From NCBI GenBank assembly GCA_965219385.1, contig CBDCNM010000001.1, positions 484,631 to 548,630 on the forward strand: a stretch of DNA of 64,000 bases. Direction: 5' to 3'. Position numbers and translations under genes: made by a program. The notes beneath the pieces were generated by a model. It saw nothing but the letters and a program-made list of their open reading frames with translations. It was not told the origin of the DNA and did not search any database. Shown here in pieces: positions 1 through 6,568 of this stretch; within the stretch, counting starts at the first letter, position 1; each line of letters starts with the position of its first letter. The stretch is from Candidatus Latescibacterota bacterium. GTDB taxonomy: Bacteria; Latescibacterota; UBA2968; UBA8231.

Positions 1-231
1 TCTTGTCACCTCCCGGATCATGGGATCATAGCTTCCAGCGCACAGATCACCGAAAGGACCGTGCAGGGACCGTGGCTGAAGATGGCCCAGAGCTCTTTGC
101 AATTCGGGCACCTTCTCTGGCTCGAGGAAAGACTGGATCTCGATCCCATACCCATTCTGACGACAGATAGCTGCGAGCGTGAGGTCATCGACCGCGATCA
201 TAATTCGATTTGGTTTGGAGCTCGTTGCCAC
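1..231 (-). CDS. Partial (runs off left edge) sugar-phosphate isomerase/epimerase, AP-endonuclease-2 TIM barrel family; probable gene cassette
   Basis: Not in the ORF track. The minus strand from GTG 231 (or ATG 201) reads MIAVDDLTLAAICRQNGYGIEIQSF...SLHGPFGDLCAGSYDPMIREVTR, matching the 'LHxPFxDLxxGSxDPxIR' motif of this family. Starts just after the GTTACCG core at 254-248. Confidence 0.65.
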   Translation of the reverse strand, partial: MATSSKPNRIMIAVDDLTLAAICRQNGYGIEIQSFLEPEKVPELQRALGHLQPRSLHGPFGDLCAGSYDPMIREVTR

Positions 232-247
232 TTCCTAAACTCATTTC

Positions 248-326
248 CGGTAACGTTCAGGGCCTCCGAACCGCGTAGCGGTTGCGCGAAGGGCGCAAGC
301 CCGAAGCCGGGGGCACGGTGTTAGCA
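248..326 (-). mobile_element. attC-like recombination site (79 bp, canonical AAC/GTT core)
   Basis: Minus strand: TGCTAAC-ACCGT-GCCCCCG...branched GC-rich hairpins...CGGAGGC-CCTGAAC-GTTACCG, just downstream of the higA stop. Confidence 0.75.
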
Positions 327-352
327 GACGTTGTCCTTCAAGGGACAGTTAC

Positions 353-658
353 CTATCCCCTCTCCAGGTGCGGCCGCACCTCTCGCTCCAAGCGGTCCGA
401 TAGCTCGTCTTCTGCTACATCCAGTGCATAGTCCATCTGAATGCCCATCCAGAATTGGGGTGACATGTTGAAATAGCGAGCGAGTCTCAGGGCGGTATCA
501 GCCGTAATGCCTCGTTTCCCCAACACGATCTCGTTGATGCGTCGGGGCGGTACGCCGATGGAAAGCGCGAGGTGGTTTTGACTGAGATTCATCGGCTTGA
601 GGAACTCTTCCAACAACACTTCCCCGGGATGAACAGGAGCCAATTTCTGAGCATACAT
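353..658 (-). CDS. higA: HigA family addiction-module antitoxin (HTH XRE)
   Basis: 'PVHPGEVLLEEFLKP...RRINEIVLGKRGITADTALRLARYF...FWMGIQ' signature; downstream of higB. Confidence 0.95.
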   Translation of the reverse strand: MYAQKLAPVHPGEVLLEEFLKPMNLSQNHLALSIGVPPRRINEIVLGKRGITADTALRLARYFNMSPQFWMGIQMDYALDVAEDELSDRLEREVRPHLERG

Positions 659-670
659 AAGTCTATTTCC

Positions 671-948
671 CTAGTGATAGTCTACGATCTCAACGTTGTA
701 GGCATCGCCATTTCGCCAAGTGAAACAGATACGCCATTGGTCGTTGATTCGAAGTACTGGCCGGCCCGCTCGCCACGGAGTTTCTCGAGGCGATTGGCTG
801 GTGGCACCCGAAGATCAGCTAGTGTAGTTGAACGATTGAGCATGCGAAGCTTGCGAACGGCGGTCTGTTGAATATCGCTGGGCAGCTTTCCAGATCGGGT
901 GCGTTGGAATATCCGTTCGGTTTCTCGATCTCTGAAGGATCGTATCAT
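671..948 (-). pseudogene. higB: HigB (RelE/ParE family) toxin, frameshifted near 752
   Basis: MIRSFRDRETERIF...PPANRLEKLRGERAGQY, then the canonical RINDQWRICFTWRNGDAYNVEIVDYH* continues in another frame to TAG at 673-671. About 4 nt encoding 'SI' are missing. Confidence 0.88.
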
Positions 949-958
949 GAGTACAATA

Positions 959-991
959 TATAACGCTTGTCATTAAACGACAAGCATTATA
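959..991 (-). promoter_or_regulatory. higBA promoter -10 (TATAAT) within a 13-bp inverted repeat; probable HigA operator
   Basis: TATAACGCTTGTC-N7-GACAAGCATTATA (1 mismatch), about 10 nt upstream of the higB ATG. Confidence 0.7.
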
Positions 992-1189
992 CTGGACGAA
1001 AATACAGCCTGTGTCGAACAATGTCTGCTAACTATCTGATATGGGATTTTAGCTACTCCATAAACCGAAACTAATGAGGAATTGAGTAGTGCTGAATCAC
1101 CGACTTTCAGCGCGCCACTGTTTGGCTAACCAAAGCAGACGCGATTGCCAACGTTACTGTTGATATGCCTACTCCAACGATTGTTCAGC

Positions 1190-2239
1190 TTAATGTACCG
1201 GTTGGCTTCGAAATCCTAAAACGAAGCTGCTGGTGCAGTACGGGACGTTACCAGACTGGAACAGGCTGCTTTCAAAGCATTCATATTTGAAGTAGCCTCT
1301 ATTCAATTCCATCATGCGCTGAATAATACCCATCCCTACACCTTTCCCTCCGTATCCAAGCTCCTGCGCGTAATGACCTCTGACGCCGGCTTTTGTCAAT
1401 TCTGCCTTGCGACCATTGTCAAAAGCCAGGCTGGTCATTTCGAATTGCATCTCCACGAAATCGGGTGAAATAACACCAAATGTCACTTGGATTGCGGTAT
1501 CCGGCTTGCAGTATTTGAGGCAATTGTCAAACAGTTGCGATATTGCTGTCCTTGCGGTCGCAAAATTTACGAAACAATATTCGGTGGATGTACCGATATT
1601 AACACGCAATTTGCGAGTTCGGAATTCCTGCTCATAGAGGTAGTAACTCATCAGGCAGACCGTATGCACGCGGTGGCGTTGGAAGTCACTACGATGGAGG
1701 TTGACCGTTGGGGCGACAAAGTCAATCACGCTGTATTCGGACATTATCTGCCCTGTCGATTGCAGGACATTTAAAATCTCACTAGCAAAGTTTCGAGGAT
1801 TTTCAGTGAGTTTGTCTCGTATGTACTCAACCTTGTCTGCAGATGAAGATAGATCATGTTCCGAAATTAGCGAGAGCAGCTTGTTGTTGATTTCGGCGTT
1901 GAGGTTTCGCGTGTTGTGGACCGCCAGTTCGGTAGCATCGTGTTCGAGCGAGCTGCGCGTAGCAGCTATGGCTAGCGAGGCTTCGTAGCCGCGTAGTGCC
2001 AAGTTGGCAAAATAGTTCGCTTGCTTTCTCGTCTTCGCCTCTTTGAGACAGAAGCAGTACCATCTATTGGTGTCTTGATCAAACCTAGAAAGACTGTACC
2101 GACCATTCTTGCACAGGCCGTTGTCTGGTTTTCCGTTAGCTGGTGGTTGAAGACATTTATCGCACGCCGGTCGGTGACCCGTCTCCTCATGTCGGAACAC
2201 GTAGTTACCACTGTGGCCATCATAGCATGCGAATCTCAT
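1190..2239 (-). CDS. Soluble histidine kinase-like HATPase_c protein with Cys-rich N-terminus
   Basis: Likely start ATG 2239 (ATGA overlap with the receiver stop). H-box-like AVHNTRN, N-box SQLFDNCLKY, G2 box GGKGVGMGII; G1 box atypical; no TM segment. Confidence 0.75.
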   Translation of the reverse strand: MRFACYDGHSGNYVFRHEETGHRPACDKCLQPPANGKPDNGLCKNGRYSLSRFDQDTNRWYCFCLKEAKTRKQANYFANLALRGYEASLAIAATRSSLEHDATELAVHNTRNLNAEINNKLLSLISEHDLSSSADKVEYIRDKLTENPRNFASEILNVLQSTGQIMSEYSVIDFVAPTVNLHRSDFQRHRVHTVCLMSYYLYEQEFRTRKLRVNIGTSTEYCFVNFATARTAISQLFDNCLKYCKPDTAIQVTFGVISPDFVEMQFEMTSLAFDNGRKAELTKAGVRGHYAQELGYGGKGVGMGIIQRMMELNRGYFKYECFESSLFQSGNVPYCTSSFVLGFRSQPVH

Positions 2240-2877
2240 AGGGAAGTGACATAGGTGGCTAATTGCGTCATTTTGGACGCAACGTCCAATCCAACCAATG
2301 CGAATTTGGCAACCCGTTGGGTGTCGAGTTCTCCGCTTCGCTGGATGCACTTGCGGAATTGCTTTTCGAATTCCTGAATGCTCATCTCTTTGCCCATGTT
2401 TACCTTATACCGCTGATATATGGCTTCCACGCAGTGTTGCCAGTCAAATGCTTGAAGCGCAAGTTGCTCAACTGTTCTAATGAACTGATATGGTTGTCCG
2501 TCCTTGTAAACACGTGCGTCGACAAGATCGATGGCCTCATCAAAAATGTCGTGCTCGCGGACGGAAGAATAAAGTAAAACCCTTTTGTTCGGATAGTGGT
2601 CTTTTAAGCCTTCCACTAAGCCCATCCCATCAGGATATCTGAGTTTTTTGCCGACACCAACAATGTCGAGACAAAGGATGTGGGAATCCAACAGTTCCGT
2701 GTTATCGAATTTGTCCAGGTCGGAGAGGTAGCGTACGCGCCAGCCTTCGTTAGCCAGGTCCTGCACAAGCTGAGGTTTTCGATCATCAATGACCAAAATC
2801 CGTGCCAACTGCTTTACTGCAGACACCGATCGTGGCGCAGTTACTCTTTTTTGATGCCGATTGAATATTGAAAACAT
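2236..2877 (-). CDS. Response regulator receiver protein with uncharacterised short C-terminal domain
   Basis: RILVIDD, phospho-acceptor LCLDIVG, LLYSS and VYK receiver residues present; no recognisable HTH output domain. Confidence 0.8.
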   Translation of the reverse strand: MFSIFNRHQKRVTAPRSVSAVKQLARILVIDDRKPQLVQDLANEGWRVRYLSDLDKFDNTELLDSHILCLDIVGVGKKLRYPDGMGLVEGLKDHYPNKRVLLYSSVREHDIFDEAIDLVDARVYKDGQPYQFIRTVEQLALQAFDWQHCVEAIYQRYKVNMGKEMSIQEFEKQFRKCIQRSGELDTQRVAKFALVGLDVASKMTQLATYVTSL

Positions 2878-2985
2878 GTGCGTTCTCTCATAGAATCATA
2901 CTATCAATTGAGCTGCGAATTACGGTATATTTTCTTCTATTCTGGAAATATATCTCAAAGATATTGATTCTTCCTTTCCCATTTC

Positions 2986-3076
2986 AGATATCGTTCTCAC
3001 AATTCACGAAGTCGCGAAAGCGACTTGCCGAAGGCCAAGCGCCGAATGGCGCGCAGCGTGAATTGCTGTGATATAT
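2986..3076 (-). mobile_element. attC-like site (91 bp) with non-canonical ATC/GAT core triplets
   Basis: Minus strand ATATATC-ACAGC-AATTCACG...CGTGAATT-GTGAGAAC-GATATCT. Internal branches (CGAA-stem-TTGC..CGAAGG..CAAGC..CCGAA on +) align with the element at 248-326. Confidence 0.7.
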
Positions 3077-3173
3077 GACGTGGGTATGATTGCTCCAAGG
3101 CTGATCAACGCAGAGAGGTAGCGACGCGAGAGTGCGTTAGCGTGCATGGCTTTGCAACAGTGTCGCTTCCACG

Positions 3174-3662
3174 TCACCACGTGGTGGGAATAGGCAGCAA
3201 CAGATCTCCTTGAATTGGCACAAATCGCGTCGACGATTCGATTAGACGACTAGCAGTTAGTCCTGGGACACCGTACACCTCGACGGACTTGGATTCCTTG
3301 ATTAGCTTGTCAATTGCAGGCGCGTAGTCTCCGTCACCTGAAGCCAGGACAGCGACATCCACGCGATCTGCGTACTCCAACATATCGACCGTAATGCCCA
3401 CGTCCCAGTCCCCTTTGGCTGAGCCGTCAGCTCTCTGAATATAAGGCGCGAGCTTTACCTCAAAACCGAGCCGTTTCAGAATTTGCTGAAATTGGGCCTG
3501 CTTTCTGTCGCCTTTGTCAATAGCATAGGCTACTGCCTTCACCAGTTTCCGGCCGGCTGTCGCCTCCCTGAGGAAAGAACCATAGTCGAAATGGCAATTA
3601 TGTTGCTGCTTAATTGTGTAGTAAACATTCTGTACATCTGCGAATACGGCTACGCGATCCAC
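3174..3662 (-). CDS. NYN domain (LabA/DUF88, PIN-like) protein; gene cassette
   Basis: VFADVQN, KGDWDVGITVD and LASGDGDY acidic motifs. Confidence 0.92.
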   Translation of the reverse strand: MDRVAVFADVQNVYYTIKQQHNCHFDYGSFLREATAGRKLVKAVAYAIDKGDRKQAQFQQILKRLGFEVKLAPYIQRADGSAKGDWDVGITVDMLEYADRVDVAVLASGDGDYAPAIDKLIKESKSVEVYGVPGLTASRLIESSTRFVPIQGDLLLPIPTTW

Positions 3663-3751
3663 GTCAGTTTTTCTCCAGCGCCTGCAGGCTCCTGATTTCT
3701 ACCGTGCCAGCTTTGCCTCTGTCGAATTTCACTGGTACTGTGACAACCCAT

Positions 3752-3815
3752 GTCATATATCTACTTATATCCGAACAATTGGTTCGGGTAATGGTAGTTA
3801 TACGCCACTTATACG
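3752..3815 (-). mobile_element. attI-like site at the head of the array
   Basis: Core G|ATATATGAC (3761-3752). Related 10-mers TACTTATATC 3762, TAGTTATACG 3795 and CACTTATACG 3806 are spaced 33 and 11 bp. CCGAAC-N5-GTTCGG palindrome at 3771-3787. Confidence 0.55.
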
Positions 3816-4007
3816 AAACAAAGGTACGTATTTTTGTGGATAGTCGCAATCGCTACGGGGCGGGAGAATTGGGCATAAGTGCGCACAGAATGTTGAGATA
3901 GCAGGATTCGTTCGGATTGGGGTGCCAGGTAGTCCAGTAGAACGCTAAAAAGCAAAAGCTGGCGTGAAATTGGTCTATTGGGACGGAGATTTTAAAAAGG
4001 CTTCTTC

Positions 4008-4721
4008 TCAAGCATTCAGTTTGGTCGCCAGTTCGTGGAAGTCGGCGGCCTCCAGGTCGAAGGAGGGATCGGCTATGAGATCGGGGTCCCCCTCAGGGCC
4101 GAACTCCAGGGGGCGGGGGACGAAGATAGTTTTGAAGCCGACGGCCTGAGCCCCGCGCAGGTCGTGAATATGGGCTGCGACCATGGCGATCTGGTCCGGG
4201 GCCAGACCGAGCAATTCGGCGGCTGTCTGGTAGACTTCGGGGTCGGGCTTGTAGTGGCGCGCCAGTTCGGCGGACAGGATGCAGTCCCACGGCAGGCGGG
4301 CGTGTTTGGCCATGTTGGTCAGCAGGGCCATATTGCCGTTGGACAGGGCCGCGACCACGAATGTGCGGCGCAGGCGCTCCAGCCCCTTTATGGCATCCGG
4401 CCAGGGTTGGAGACGGTGCCACACCCGGTTCAGGTCTTCCTTTGCGGCTGCGCTCAAGCCGTCGATGTGAAATTCGTCCAGGAGCTGGTCGAGGATCAGG
4501 CGGTGGAGCCCGTCGATGGGGGTCCAGGGCAGATCCCCGCGGCGCACCCGGTCCATGGCCGGCTCGTACCCGCGGCGCCAGGCATCGGCGAATTCGGCCC
4601 AGTCCACCCGGATGCCTCTGGCGCGGCCGAGTTGTTCGCCGACGCGCACGATGCTGGAGCGCCAGTCCACGACCGTGCCGAAGACATCGAAGGTGAGGGC
4701 TTTGATGGCGGATAGATCCAT
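4008..4721 (-). CDS. Haloacid dehalogenase type II (HAD superfamily)
   Basis: ALTFDVFGTVVDW, ALSNGN, YKPDPEVY, MVAAH. True start ATG 4721, directly after the GH127 stop; the ORF-track N-extension is spurious. Confidence 0.92.
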   Translation of the reverse strand: MDLSAIKALTFDVFGTVVDWRSSIVRVGEQLGRARGIRVDWAEFADAWRRGYEPAMDRVRRGDLPWTPIDGLHRLILDQLLDEFHIDGLSAAAKEDLNRVWHRLQPWPDAIKGLERLRRTFVVAALSNGNMALLTNMAKHARLPWDCILSAELARHYKPDPEVYQTAAELLGLAPDQIAMVAAHIHDLRGAQAVGFKTIFVPRPLEFGPEGDPDLIADPSFDLEAADFHELATKLNA

Positions 4722-4723
4722 GG

Positions 4724-6568
4724 CTATTGCGACCGGCCGCTGCGCAGGGGATTGTGCGGCGCAAAAGGGGTCTTGTCGATGTTTTCGAGCTTGAGCCAGG
4801 AACGATAGGGTGACCCTGCTTCGCCGGCACTGGCAAAATCGCACAGCCGCAGCTTGCGCCCATCGCCTGCCGTGTATTCCAGCACCACCATGGTGGGCAG
4901 ATCGTCTCCGCCAGGCACGAGCCGGTCCTTCAGGGCGCGGGCGTCGAGGATTGGAAGGTCGGCCAGATCCATGTCGTTGAGGCGGCGGTCGTAGGTCAGC
5001 AGAATGGGGCCGCGGTACAGGGAGGTCTTGCCGCGGCACTCTTTTTCGCCCACCCAGAAATGCGGCGACATATCCAGGTCGAGTTCCACCTTGTCGCCGC
5101 GTTTCCACCTGCGCTCCAACTCCAGGTAGGAACCGGATTCCACCCCGCAGATGCTTTTGCCGTTTACCTTTACTCTGGTTCGGGCGGACCAGTAGGGGAT
5201 GCGCAATTTTAGGGTGAATGGGGCGGCGCGCGTGGGAGAGACCCTGATTTCGATCCGGCCCCGGCGGGGGTACTCGGTGTCCTGCGCCAGCTCGACATCG
5301 AGTCCGGGAGCGAGCCGGGTCTTCGCGCTGCCGGGACCGTACCAGTTGAGCGCCAAGCCTTCCGGGCAGCGCATCAGGGCCCAGTCGCCGATTATCCCCA
5401 GGCCTCGCGGACCATTGACGCTGCAGCAGTTCAGTTCGGGGGTGCCTTCGCGCGCCTGGAAGACAATGTCGTGGGCACTGGCCTTGCGCACCCCGTCCAT
5501 GGGGGTGTTGTAGGTCACCCAGCGACCGGTGTGGGAGTGCAGGCCGAGCGCCGAGTTGAGGGTGGACAGCTCGATTTCGTCGGCGACTACGGAATTTCCC
5601 GTGAGCCGCAGCATTTCCACGCTGAGGGCGATCCAGGCCACGGTACAACAGGTCTCGATGGCGCCCGGGTGGTAGGGATTGCCCTGGGCCCGTTCCCCGG
5701 AGGTGAAGCCGCCGTTGTTGTGGCGGTCGAGTTTGACAATGCTCCACCAGATGTGCTCGAAGGCCCTGCGGTAGTCTTCCTCGCCGGTGATCCAGTAGAG
5801 TTCCACCAGCCCCATGATGGGGTGCAGGCTTTCCCAGCGGGGCTTGGGGGTCTGGTAAAATTCCTCTCCGGCCAGTGCGGTTCTCAGGTAGTCGCCGGCC
5901 AGGGGGCCCTCCGGACTCTGGCCGGCGAATTCATCAACGATTTGCAGGGCCATGTCGAGGTAGGGCCGGGTCCGGGTTTTGCGGTAGAGGAGGCAGAGGG
6001 AGTGGATCACGGCCAGGTTCATTTCGGTACTGCCGGTGTCCACCAGGCGCCGCCGTTTTTTACCCAGGTATTTGGCGCAGATGAGATCCGCTATGCCGAT
6101 GGCGGATTCGAGCGCCTTTTTGTCGGAGGTCTCCTCGTGCCACAGCATCAGGCCCAGCATGATGTGGTAGTGTCCCCAGGAATCCCAGGTAGGGCCGCCT
6201 TTCCCCGAAGTATTGGCGGCCTTGTTGGCGAGCCGGTACTTGCGGGGCCAGGGGCCCAAGTACCCGTCGTCGGCCTGGAGCTGGACCAGGCGGTCGACGA
6301 AATTGCGGAGGTATTGCTTCAGGTGAGGATCTCGGATGAGGCGCAGGATCTGCACGGCGCTGGTGAGGTACTTGCCGGCGAACTCCCCGGCCCAGGGCAC
6401 CATATTGCGCCGGGGCAGCCGATCCCGGTCGTGGAACATTTCCAGCATGGCCGGGTTGGCACTGGGAGCCACCTTGAGCCACTGTTCGGTCACCCCGGCC
6501 AGATAGTCGGCTACGGGGCCTTTGAGCCGGTAGGTGGTCCGGGGGATGCGATTGAGCACAGGTTTCAT
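4724..6568 (-). CDS. Glycoside hydrolase family 127 (beta-L-arabinofuranosidase-like, DUF1680)
   Basis: GEFAGKYL, QADDGYLG, IETCC, NCCSVNGPRG, TEYP, LRIPYW, LYRGPILL; ATG 6568 with AGGGAG RBS. Confidence 0.88.
   Translation of the reverse strand: MKPVLNRIPRTTYRLKGPVADYLAGVTEQWLKVAPSANPAMLEMFHDRDRLPRRNMVPWAGEFAGKYLTSAVQILRLIRDPHLKQYLRNFVDRLVQLQADDGYLGPWPRKYRLANKAANTSGKGGPTWDSWGHYHIMLGLMLWHEETSDKKALESAIGIADLICAKYLGKKRRRLVDTGSTEMNLAVIHSLCLLYRKTRTRPYLDMALQIVDEFAGQSPEGPLAGDYLRTALAGEEFYQTPKPRWESLHPIMGLVELYWITGEEDYRRAFEHIWWSIVKLDRHNNGGFTSGERAQGNPYHPGAIETCCTVAWIALSVEMLRLTGNSVVADEIELSTLNSALGLHSHTGRWVTYNTPMDGVRKASAHDIVFQAREGTPELNCCSVNGPRGLGIIGDWALMRCPEGLALNWYGPGSAKTRLAPGLDVELAQDTEYPRRGRIEIRVSPTRAAPFTLKLRIPYWSARTRVKVNGKSICGVESGSYLELERRWKRGDKVELDLDMSPHFWVGEKECRGKTSLYRGPILLTYDRRLNDMDLADLPILDARALKDRLVPGGDDLPTMVVLEYTAGDGRKLRLCDFASAGEAGSPYRSWLKLENIDKTPFAPHNPLRSGRSQ

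Follow-up and report, generated by a model that had tools for sequence, protein, structure and literature searches.

The complementary triplets AAC and GTT are treated as the sole universal sequence feature of integron recombination sites, and both cassette boundaries and attC models lean on them. Sedentary chromosomal integrons carry homogeneous families of attC sites, such as the VCRs of Vibrio. The IntI-specific domain (I2 helix) is held to be necessary for the activity of an integron integrase; Messier and Roy reportedly devoted a 2001 study to this additional domain.

The AAC/GTT triplet is called the best-conserved part of attC in PMC4889954, and the core is written GTTRRRY in PMC8876359 and PMC12901181. 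Frumerie et al. (Nucleic Acids Res 2010; PMC2811028) report the second triplet position to be tolerant: changing GTT to GAT along with complementary changes raised the frequency of attC x attI1 recombination by IntI1, and the same text, citing Francia et al., reports GAT as a preferred secondary site. The preprint of Loot et al. (10.1101/2022.09.11.507474) describes genomic insertions by IntI1, IntI2 and IntI3 with a GWT consensus. The additional domain is presented as a defining characteristic of integron integrases in another source (10.1101/2022.02.06.479319), and clusters of attC sites lacking an integron integrase are termed CALIN by Cury et al. 2016 (PMC4889954). No report of a natural attC with a GAT core was found in the literature searched, subscription journals and supplements lying outside that search.

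The window analysed here is a 64-kb stretch (64,000 nt) of a Candidatus Latescibacterota genome (G000:C1:484631-548630, where G000 denotes the genome under study, other G numbers its relatives and L numbers individual loci). Sixty relatives were searched; together with the genome itself this makes 61 genomes. The ORFs of window 1-3700 are all on the minus strand, so that the attC sites fold on the plus strand, which is their bottom strand, and the crossover triplets of the left box (R') and the right box (R'') of each attC are quoted on this strand. GC content is 0.43-0.54 across 600-4000 versus 0.62-0.67 across 4000-6400, with the step, from about 0.46-0.54 up to 0.64-0.67, at ~4000; the low-GC stretch, which is patchy, extends left beyond the window start.

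The low-GC stretch is organized as an array of cassettes. A canonical attC at 247-329 (plus, bottom strand), with AAC at 252-254 and GTT at 320-322, scored 60.6 bits (E 2.7e-14) with the covariance model R1 described below. It belongs to a higBA cassette (254-1031, minus strand) encoding HigA (353-658, minus; TIGR02607, 106 bits) and HigB (682-948, minus; PF05015, 40.3 bits). The cassette starts with G|TTAGCAGAC (1032->1023, minus strand), complementary to its own R''. The sequence-only reading had described the unit as bracketed by an inverted pair, and GTTAGCAGAC is indeed present at 320-329 (plus) and 1023-1032 (minus), its only two matches in the 64-kb window (chance expectation 0.06). A further higBA copy, 84.6% identical to window 251-983, lies in another array of the same genome (C2:1620246-1620988).

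The adjoining unit (1032-2991, minus) starts with G|ATATCTGAAATGGG and carries two genes, an ORF at 2236-2877 (minus) with a weak receiver-like match and another at 1190-2350 (minus) with a weak HATPase_c match. Its own attC is absent: R1, run with filters off, found no attC between 329 and 2985. What is left is a 14-nt remnant of an R'' box at 1033-1046 (plus), an inverted repeat of the unit's start at 2975-2991, which abuts the C of AAC at 1032. The interior of this attC was probably deleted and the unit thereby fused to the higBA cassette, in what looks like a hairpin deletion. When the two-gene unit (1000-3000) was sought in the 60 relatives, the sole match was the cassette-start motif of ~30 nt.

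Next comes the cassette of main interest here, an NYN-domain cassette of 769 nt (2992-3760, minus) that has a G|AT crossover point at either end; the ORF occupies 3174-3662 (minus; PF01936, 129.3 bits). It is followed by an attI-like site at 3761-3850 (plus), the head of the array, where the junction reads ...TCATAT|ATC and then TACTTATATCCGAACAATTGGTTCGGG. Judging from the GC step and the ORF list, the chromosomal backbone resumes with a GC-rich gene at 4008-4730 (minus), which we take to be HAD-hydrolase-like.

Four attC sites, starting at window positions -1518, -625, 247 and 2985, thus stand with no integrase nearby. No integrase was found to the right of 3850, nor any match to TIGR02249 in or near the window; there is no adjacent intI with an IntI-specific domain such as a complete integron has, and the nearest IntI-like gene on the same contig is ~400 kb off (C1:888121). 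Window 1-3850, taken together with ~1.5 kb further left, is best explained as an integron array head, a CALIN that retains its attI-like site. Its four attC from -1518 to 3079, with no integrase nearby and at least two sites, agree with the CALIN definition of Cury et al.; different here are the attI-like head, which was kept, and a first cassette 98-99% identical to copies in other genera. These two features make the cluster look recently active rather than decayed.

The attC of the NYN cassette (2985-3079, plus, bottom strand) was characterized by its letters, its fold and a family model. Every base quoted in the sequence-only reading was found at its stated position. Two nested imperfect inverted repeats (R''/R' and L''/L') fold into a hairpin, the site stands downstream of a cassette ORF, and 10 bases at the start of this cassette complement its R''; instead of AAC and GTT the site has the triplets ATC (2990-2992) and GAT (3070-3072). 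A third variant triplet, ATC at 3759-3761, is the attI junction. The perfect inverted pair said to bracket the NYN unit is present as GATATATGAC at 3070-3079 (plus) and 3752-3761 (minus); these are its only two matches in the 64-kb window, compared with a chance expectation of 0.08, and none of 100 shuffles gave two or more. The plus strand of 2980-3085 has a predicted fold of -26.3 kcal/mol (z -4.03), equalled by 0 of 200 shuffles, in which ATC is paired with GAT, C3066 is bulged on the R''-L'' arm, and the four bases 2994-2997 are left unpaired as a one-sided spacer. R1 matched 2985-3078 over its full length with 77.7 bits (E 1e-18), the 10th rank among 48 sites. Rfam gave no match for window 1-4200 at E up to 1. 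Element 2985-3079 is therefore, on the letters, the fold and the covariance model alike, a true attC with a GAT/ATC core, as had been proposed, and a member of its family in everything but the conserved triplet.

The sequence-only reading had further called the two triplets compensated. This holds as far as pairing goes, ATC being opposite GAT; the left AT (2990-2991), though, comes from the next unit and not from the NYN cassette. ATC pairs with GAT within the array because two adjacent units both start with AT.

Three unusual triplets could be an error of sequencing or assembly. Against this, the contigs of four public runs from four studies have no other letter at any of the three triplets, where the earlier reading had advised a check of reads, and independent genomes carry the same letters; the explanation has next to no probability and was rejected. 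Contigs cannot reveal circles or empty sites. A joint 3057->3752 (run X10) and a go-back joint (X7) were seen in one contig each, inside repeated attC sequence.

To see how common the variant is, we built models of the family. A profile HMM (nhmmer) made from the four sites at window -1518, -625, 247 and 2985 found 40 related sites in the genome at E <= 1e-3 in the first round and 48 in the second at the same threshold. Covariance model R1 was built from 37 of the genome's own attC sites, 35 of which have GTT; MAFFT with RNAalifold on the 37 sites gave two inner hairpins only, and for this reason the R and outer L pairs of R1 were written by hand. R1 found 48 sites in the genome at E <= 0.01, distributed over a large array (C2:1317338-1339250) and eight or more smaller clusters. 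Two hand-written scans for inverted repeats were too noisy and yielded one new site. At E <= 0.001 R1 has matches in 31 of the 60 relatives, as well as in G000, and 45 of the relatives' loci (best matches or arrays) contain 242 sites. In the best 150 of these 242 the model's pairs are formed in 94.4% of cells, and 12 of 16 pairs covary, in an alignment fitted to R1. The covariance-model scan of this genome and relatives, as proposed in the sequence-only reading, brought up ATC/GAT sites in both.

Some traits of the family deserve mention in their own right. The R box is longer than the textbook seven bases: its 3' copy reads approximately GTTAnnnGAYGT, its 5' copy mirrors this, and in all 37 own sites of the alignment the triplet is followed by A. 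At least 10 of 50 aligned own attC are preceded by the same flank, ...GGCGGC.TTTATGGCGGCCCAAC; examples are C2:2194612, C2:762508, C1:891507 and C1:1326289, the last in three identical copies (C1:1326289, C2:3384394 and C2:4479231). The TTTATGGCGGCCCAAC flank could be either a cassette start present in several copies or the terminus of a mobile element sitting at the crossover point. In hybrid attC sites (L010:339-425 and L053:6999-7103) the L' and L'' halves belong to different subtypes and are unpaired, which suggests exchange within the conserved central motif.

Like the attC of sedentary integrons, these sites are imperfect palindromes (82-106 nt), each marking the 3' end of a single promoterless ORF. 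R and L boxes, an extrahelical base (here a predicted one), a variable centre and a family-wide consensus are further common traits; likewise there are many cassettes in one orientation, each with a start complementary to its own R''. Different here are the ATC/GAT triplet, the longer R box and an array without canonical IntI.

The triplet was tallied in both sets of sites. Among the genome's own 48 (in which an exact triplicate of three sites and duplicates of two are each counted separately) R' is AAC in 40, ATC in 2, AAA in 2, AAT in 2 and AGG in 1, one being unaligned; R'' is GTT in 43, GAT in 2, GCT in 1 and ATT in 1, to which C2:4428209-4428293 adds a GAT found by eye. The loci of the relatives had been picked regardless of triplet, and in the best 150 of the 242 sites R' is AAC in 137, ATC in 7, GAC in 3, AAT in 2 and TAC in 1, while R'' is GTT in 141, GAT in 6 and GTC, GGT and TTT in one each. 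A wider nhmmer tally of 235 related sites, which leaves out the overlapping loci L018, L019, L024 and L029, counted 12 ATC and 7 GAT; one of the 12 ATC (L070) comes from a locus fetched for its likeness to the ATC junction. GAT/ATC thus accounts for ~4-5% of all boxes in the family. One or more boxes of this type were found in ten relatives (G001, G002, G012, G013, G015, G018, G026, G030, G047 and G052) and, by eye, in G045 and G059, so that 12 relatives from families f1, f2 and f4 carry the variant.

GAT-type cassettes differ in content. At least six are distinct: NYN, UxuA-like, 3-keto-disaccharide hydrolase, adenylyltransferase-family and two with ORFs of unknown type, and they stand on at least three attC backbones. 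The attC at the end of the UxuA-like cassette (C2:4426882-4428289) has an ATC-type R'', and the start of this cassette reads G|ATATATGAA. In G012, the GAT-type cassette at L028:611-1495 encodes a member of the streptomycin adenylyltransferase family (PF04439, 223.6 bits). A second GAT site of the genome itself belongs to a paralogue of the NYN cassette (C2:2190407-2191124, 74% nt identity), whose R'' GTGATATATGACGTGGGTA is unchanged, while its R' is AAC and comes from a different neighbour. GAT/ATC is, then, a recurrent natural minority core variant, and the class of GAT-core cassettes that the sequence-only reading had suggested does exist, as a small recurrent one. Another complementary pair was seen among the 235 related sites, GAC in R' (5) and GTC in R'' (4), e.g. 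at L053:6999-7103, L065:5711-5806 and L066:3592-3687; both boxes carry it in one of the seven adjacent pairs having either.

The variant box goes together with the cassette start. In 196 pairs of adjacent sites an AT start was found in four of five cassettes with R'' GAT versus 4 of 191 others (Fisher p = 6e-6, a value overstated since kin and repeated cassettes are not independent). The exceptions are one R'' GAT cassette that starts after an AAC box and four AT-starting units that follow a GTT R''; some of them are probably missed or lost attC sites. At the middle pair of the triplets, 138 of the 150 related sites have A-U, one has U-A and one U-G, and ten are unpaired; a central mismatch is therefore usual for GAT or ATC boxes while they are in the array.

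Copies of the NYN cassette were found in other genomes. Two are in G026 (L063 and L084, both covering cassette positions 1-769, with 98.8% and 98.5% nt identity), one in G018 (L053, 28-769, 98.0%) and one in G015 (L021, 92-769, 99.0%, the locus being cut at its end); less similar are a copy in G018 (L051, 80-665, 83.9%) and the paralogue of the genome itself (L013, 7-713, 74.4%). The homology of the copies starts at G|ATATATGAC, and the neighbours differ. In the alignment it begins as G|ATATATGACATGGG, preceded by four different sequences: in the window this is the attI-like site, and in G026, G015 and G018 there are three attC that differ from one another. The left cassette end is fixed to within one base only, because the G is common to all contexts. 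At the other end homology stops at ...GAGAACG|, followed by ATATCTG in the window versus TTACATG in G026. The copies may descend from one another rather than represent separate insertions; attI-like flanks of the NYN copies are, however, 75-89% identical where alignable versus 98-99% for the cassette, which argues for separate recent insertions and not for one inherited block. The same cassette with the same ends and different neighbours indicates, from comparison of genomes, that the NYN cassette is probably mobile and moves by integron-type recombination at G|AT, its variant site thus being functional in nature.

These copies also bear on another explanation, that the site is a decayed relic in a dead array whose GAT and ATC arose by point mutations and match by coincidence. 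The array does have no integrase, the attC of the next unit is lost, some sites look degenerate, and the genome has other variant triplets (AAA 2, AAT 2 and AGG, ATT and GCT one each). Decay would, on the other hand, hardly leave the same letters at both cassette ends in four genomes with different neighbours, an R'' identical in the 74%-identical NYN paralogue, a cassette start and R'' complementary over 10 bases, or a co-occurrence of R'' GAT with the AT start. We regard decay as very improbable; the earlier argument against drift is borne out by the cassette ends in other genomes and by the R'' of the paralogue.

The attI-like element is conserved as well. Window 3744-3849 has 78-81% identity to two other places in the genome. 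One, C2:1340035-1340126, separates the final attC of the large array from an IntI-like gene; the other, C2:4422711-4422816, stands where a different array ends. Array ends in G015, G018, G026 and G056 hold seven further copies (L080-L085 and L089), giving ten loci, in two of which an IntI-like gene is beside the element. The core ...CCGAACAATTGGTTCGG... occurs in several copies per genome at array ends, most of them without an adjacent integrase gene. The ten aligned junctions read AAC in six, CTC in one and ATC in three, and in all three ATC junctions NYN is the first cassette. From its conservation and position, the element is the putative attI of the lineage. On contig C1 of G026 the NYN cassette occupies the first place next to the attI-like site, and a short IntI-like gene lies 161 nt from that site.

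We consider it very probable that the NYN cassette is a mobile cassette with a minority GAT core, handled by the same recombinase as the neighbouring GTT cassettes. On the top strand, crossover would fall directly 3' of the G in G|NT; on the bottom strand this is the point that separates the second base of A-N-C from the third. The two letters 3' of the G would then travel with the downstream cassette. A cassette starting with AT would carry the matching ...ATC in its own R'' box; as the AT start matches this box, the R stem would pair once the excised circle folds. Recent insertions of the NYN cassette, always at G|AT, would have gone into attI-like sites as well as behind different attC in several genomes, through a recombinase that also serves the adjacent GTT cassettes. 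The sequences, the membership of the family, the predicted fold, the recurrence and, to within one base, the boundaries come directly from the data; in this scheme we infer the exact cleavage point, the resolution by replication and the acting enzyme.

The sequence-only reading had allowed for an integrase with altered core specificity. Such an enzyme is not needed, because cassettes of the two types, GTT and GAT, are mixed within single arrays, being direct neighbours at C2:4426135-4428558, L063 and L053, and because IntI1 tolerates or favours GAT according to Frumerie et al. A stronger version, in which GAT cassettes form a separate class with its own exchange pool and its own integrase preferring G|AT, seems to us very improbable. 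It would fit the atypical recombinase at array heads, in which ~41 residues of the IntI domain are absent and which scores below the IntI cut-off, and the extended motif GATA[T/G][A/G/C]TGA common to GAT boxes. Yet the genome's own boxes are mostly AAC (40 of 48 R') and GTT (43 of 48 R''), GAT and GTT cassettes adjoin and use the same attI-like sites, no second integrase type tracks GAT sites, and IntI1 already takes GAT (PMC2811028). The shared-recombinase explanation is therefore the one we retain.

Compared with the engineered attCaadA7/attI1 GAT mutants (PMC2811028), the change is the same, T to A in the second position with a complementary change in the partner; those mutants were obtained by mutagenesis and used with IntI1 in E. 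coli, whereas here the change is natural, present in at least 13 genomes and located on cassettes that have evidently moved. With the GWT sites called attG (10.1101/2022.09.11.507474) the site has in common a G|AT core accepted by integron integrases. An attG, as described there, is a double-stranded chromosomal target without an attC hairpin; the GAT sites found here are, unlike attG, within complete attC hairpins and at attI junctions and are carried along by the cassette, and the NYN site is accordingly no secondary target.

The earlier reading had proposed to locate the IntI of this genome. Array-linked IntI-like genes were found, though no canonical IntI: the best match of the genome to TIGR02249 has 199 bits, and none reaches the 265-bit cut-off. 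One gene, beside the large array (C2:1340259-1341139; L001 1429-2336, or 1429-2265), is frameshifted before the region of the catalytic tyrosine; an intact paralogue of 318 aa (C1:888121-889077; L002 1390-2346) is beside two attC sites. The two score 181 and 199 bits with TIGR02249, and 164 and 199 bits with NF040815. Among solved structures the best match is VchIntIA (2a3v), aligned in two segments, with query positions 202-227 opposite chain residues 174-240. Alignment with the canonical IntIs of relatives (L074 and L079) showed that the entire IntI-specific insertion is absent, ~41 residues being missing relative to VchIntIA as well as to these IntIs.

Homologues of 41-52% identity are located near arrays in five of five genomes examined. 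The distance from the short-integrase gene to the nearest listed attC is 0.7 kb in G002, 1.1 kb in G015, 1.4 kb in G018 and 6.6 kb in G056; in G026, 161 nt separate the gene from the array's attI-like site. Put otherwise, it lies 130-160 nt from an array-head attI-like site in the genome under study and in G026, and within ~1.5 kb of array ends in G002, G018 and G015. Canonical IntI genes are present in 11 of the 61 genomes and absent from G000, G002, G015, G018, G026 and G056; the canonical loci L074-L079 have no site of the attC family within their short flanks of 1.5-2 kb. The short family comprises 3843 proteins at E <= 1e-40 among 8000 candidates scored, and its closest named members among these candidates come from Latescibacteria, Krumholzibacteria and Dehalococcoidia MAGs.

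A bolder reading, which we hold to be less likely than not, is that the attC arrays of the lineage, including the one in the window, are run by this short IntI-like recombinase without the IntI-specific domain (I2 helix). Since the array in the window has no integrase, one IntI-like gene is frameshifted and a canonical IntI is absent, present-day activity in this strain is uncertain.

The natural GAT/ATC core, on cassettes moved between genera, bears out the prediction from class 1 mutagenesis, and rules demanding GTT would mis-set a few percent of cassette ends in such lineages. The short recombinase may be the more novel point than the GAT core. The lineage is a test case for attC arrays run by a recombinase that lacks the IntI-specific domain; if this assignment is true, the arrays would form an integron class of their own, with G|WT as its natural core, and the enzyme would represent a surviving intermediate stage linking Xer recombinases to integron integrases.
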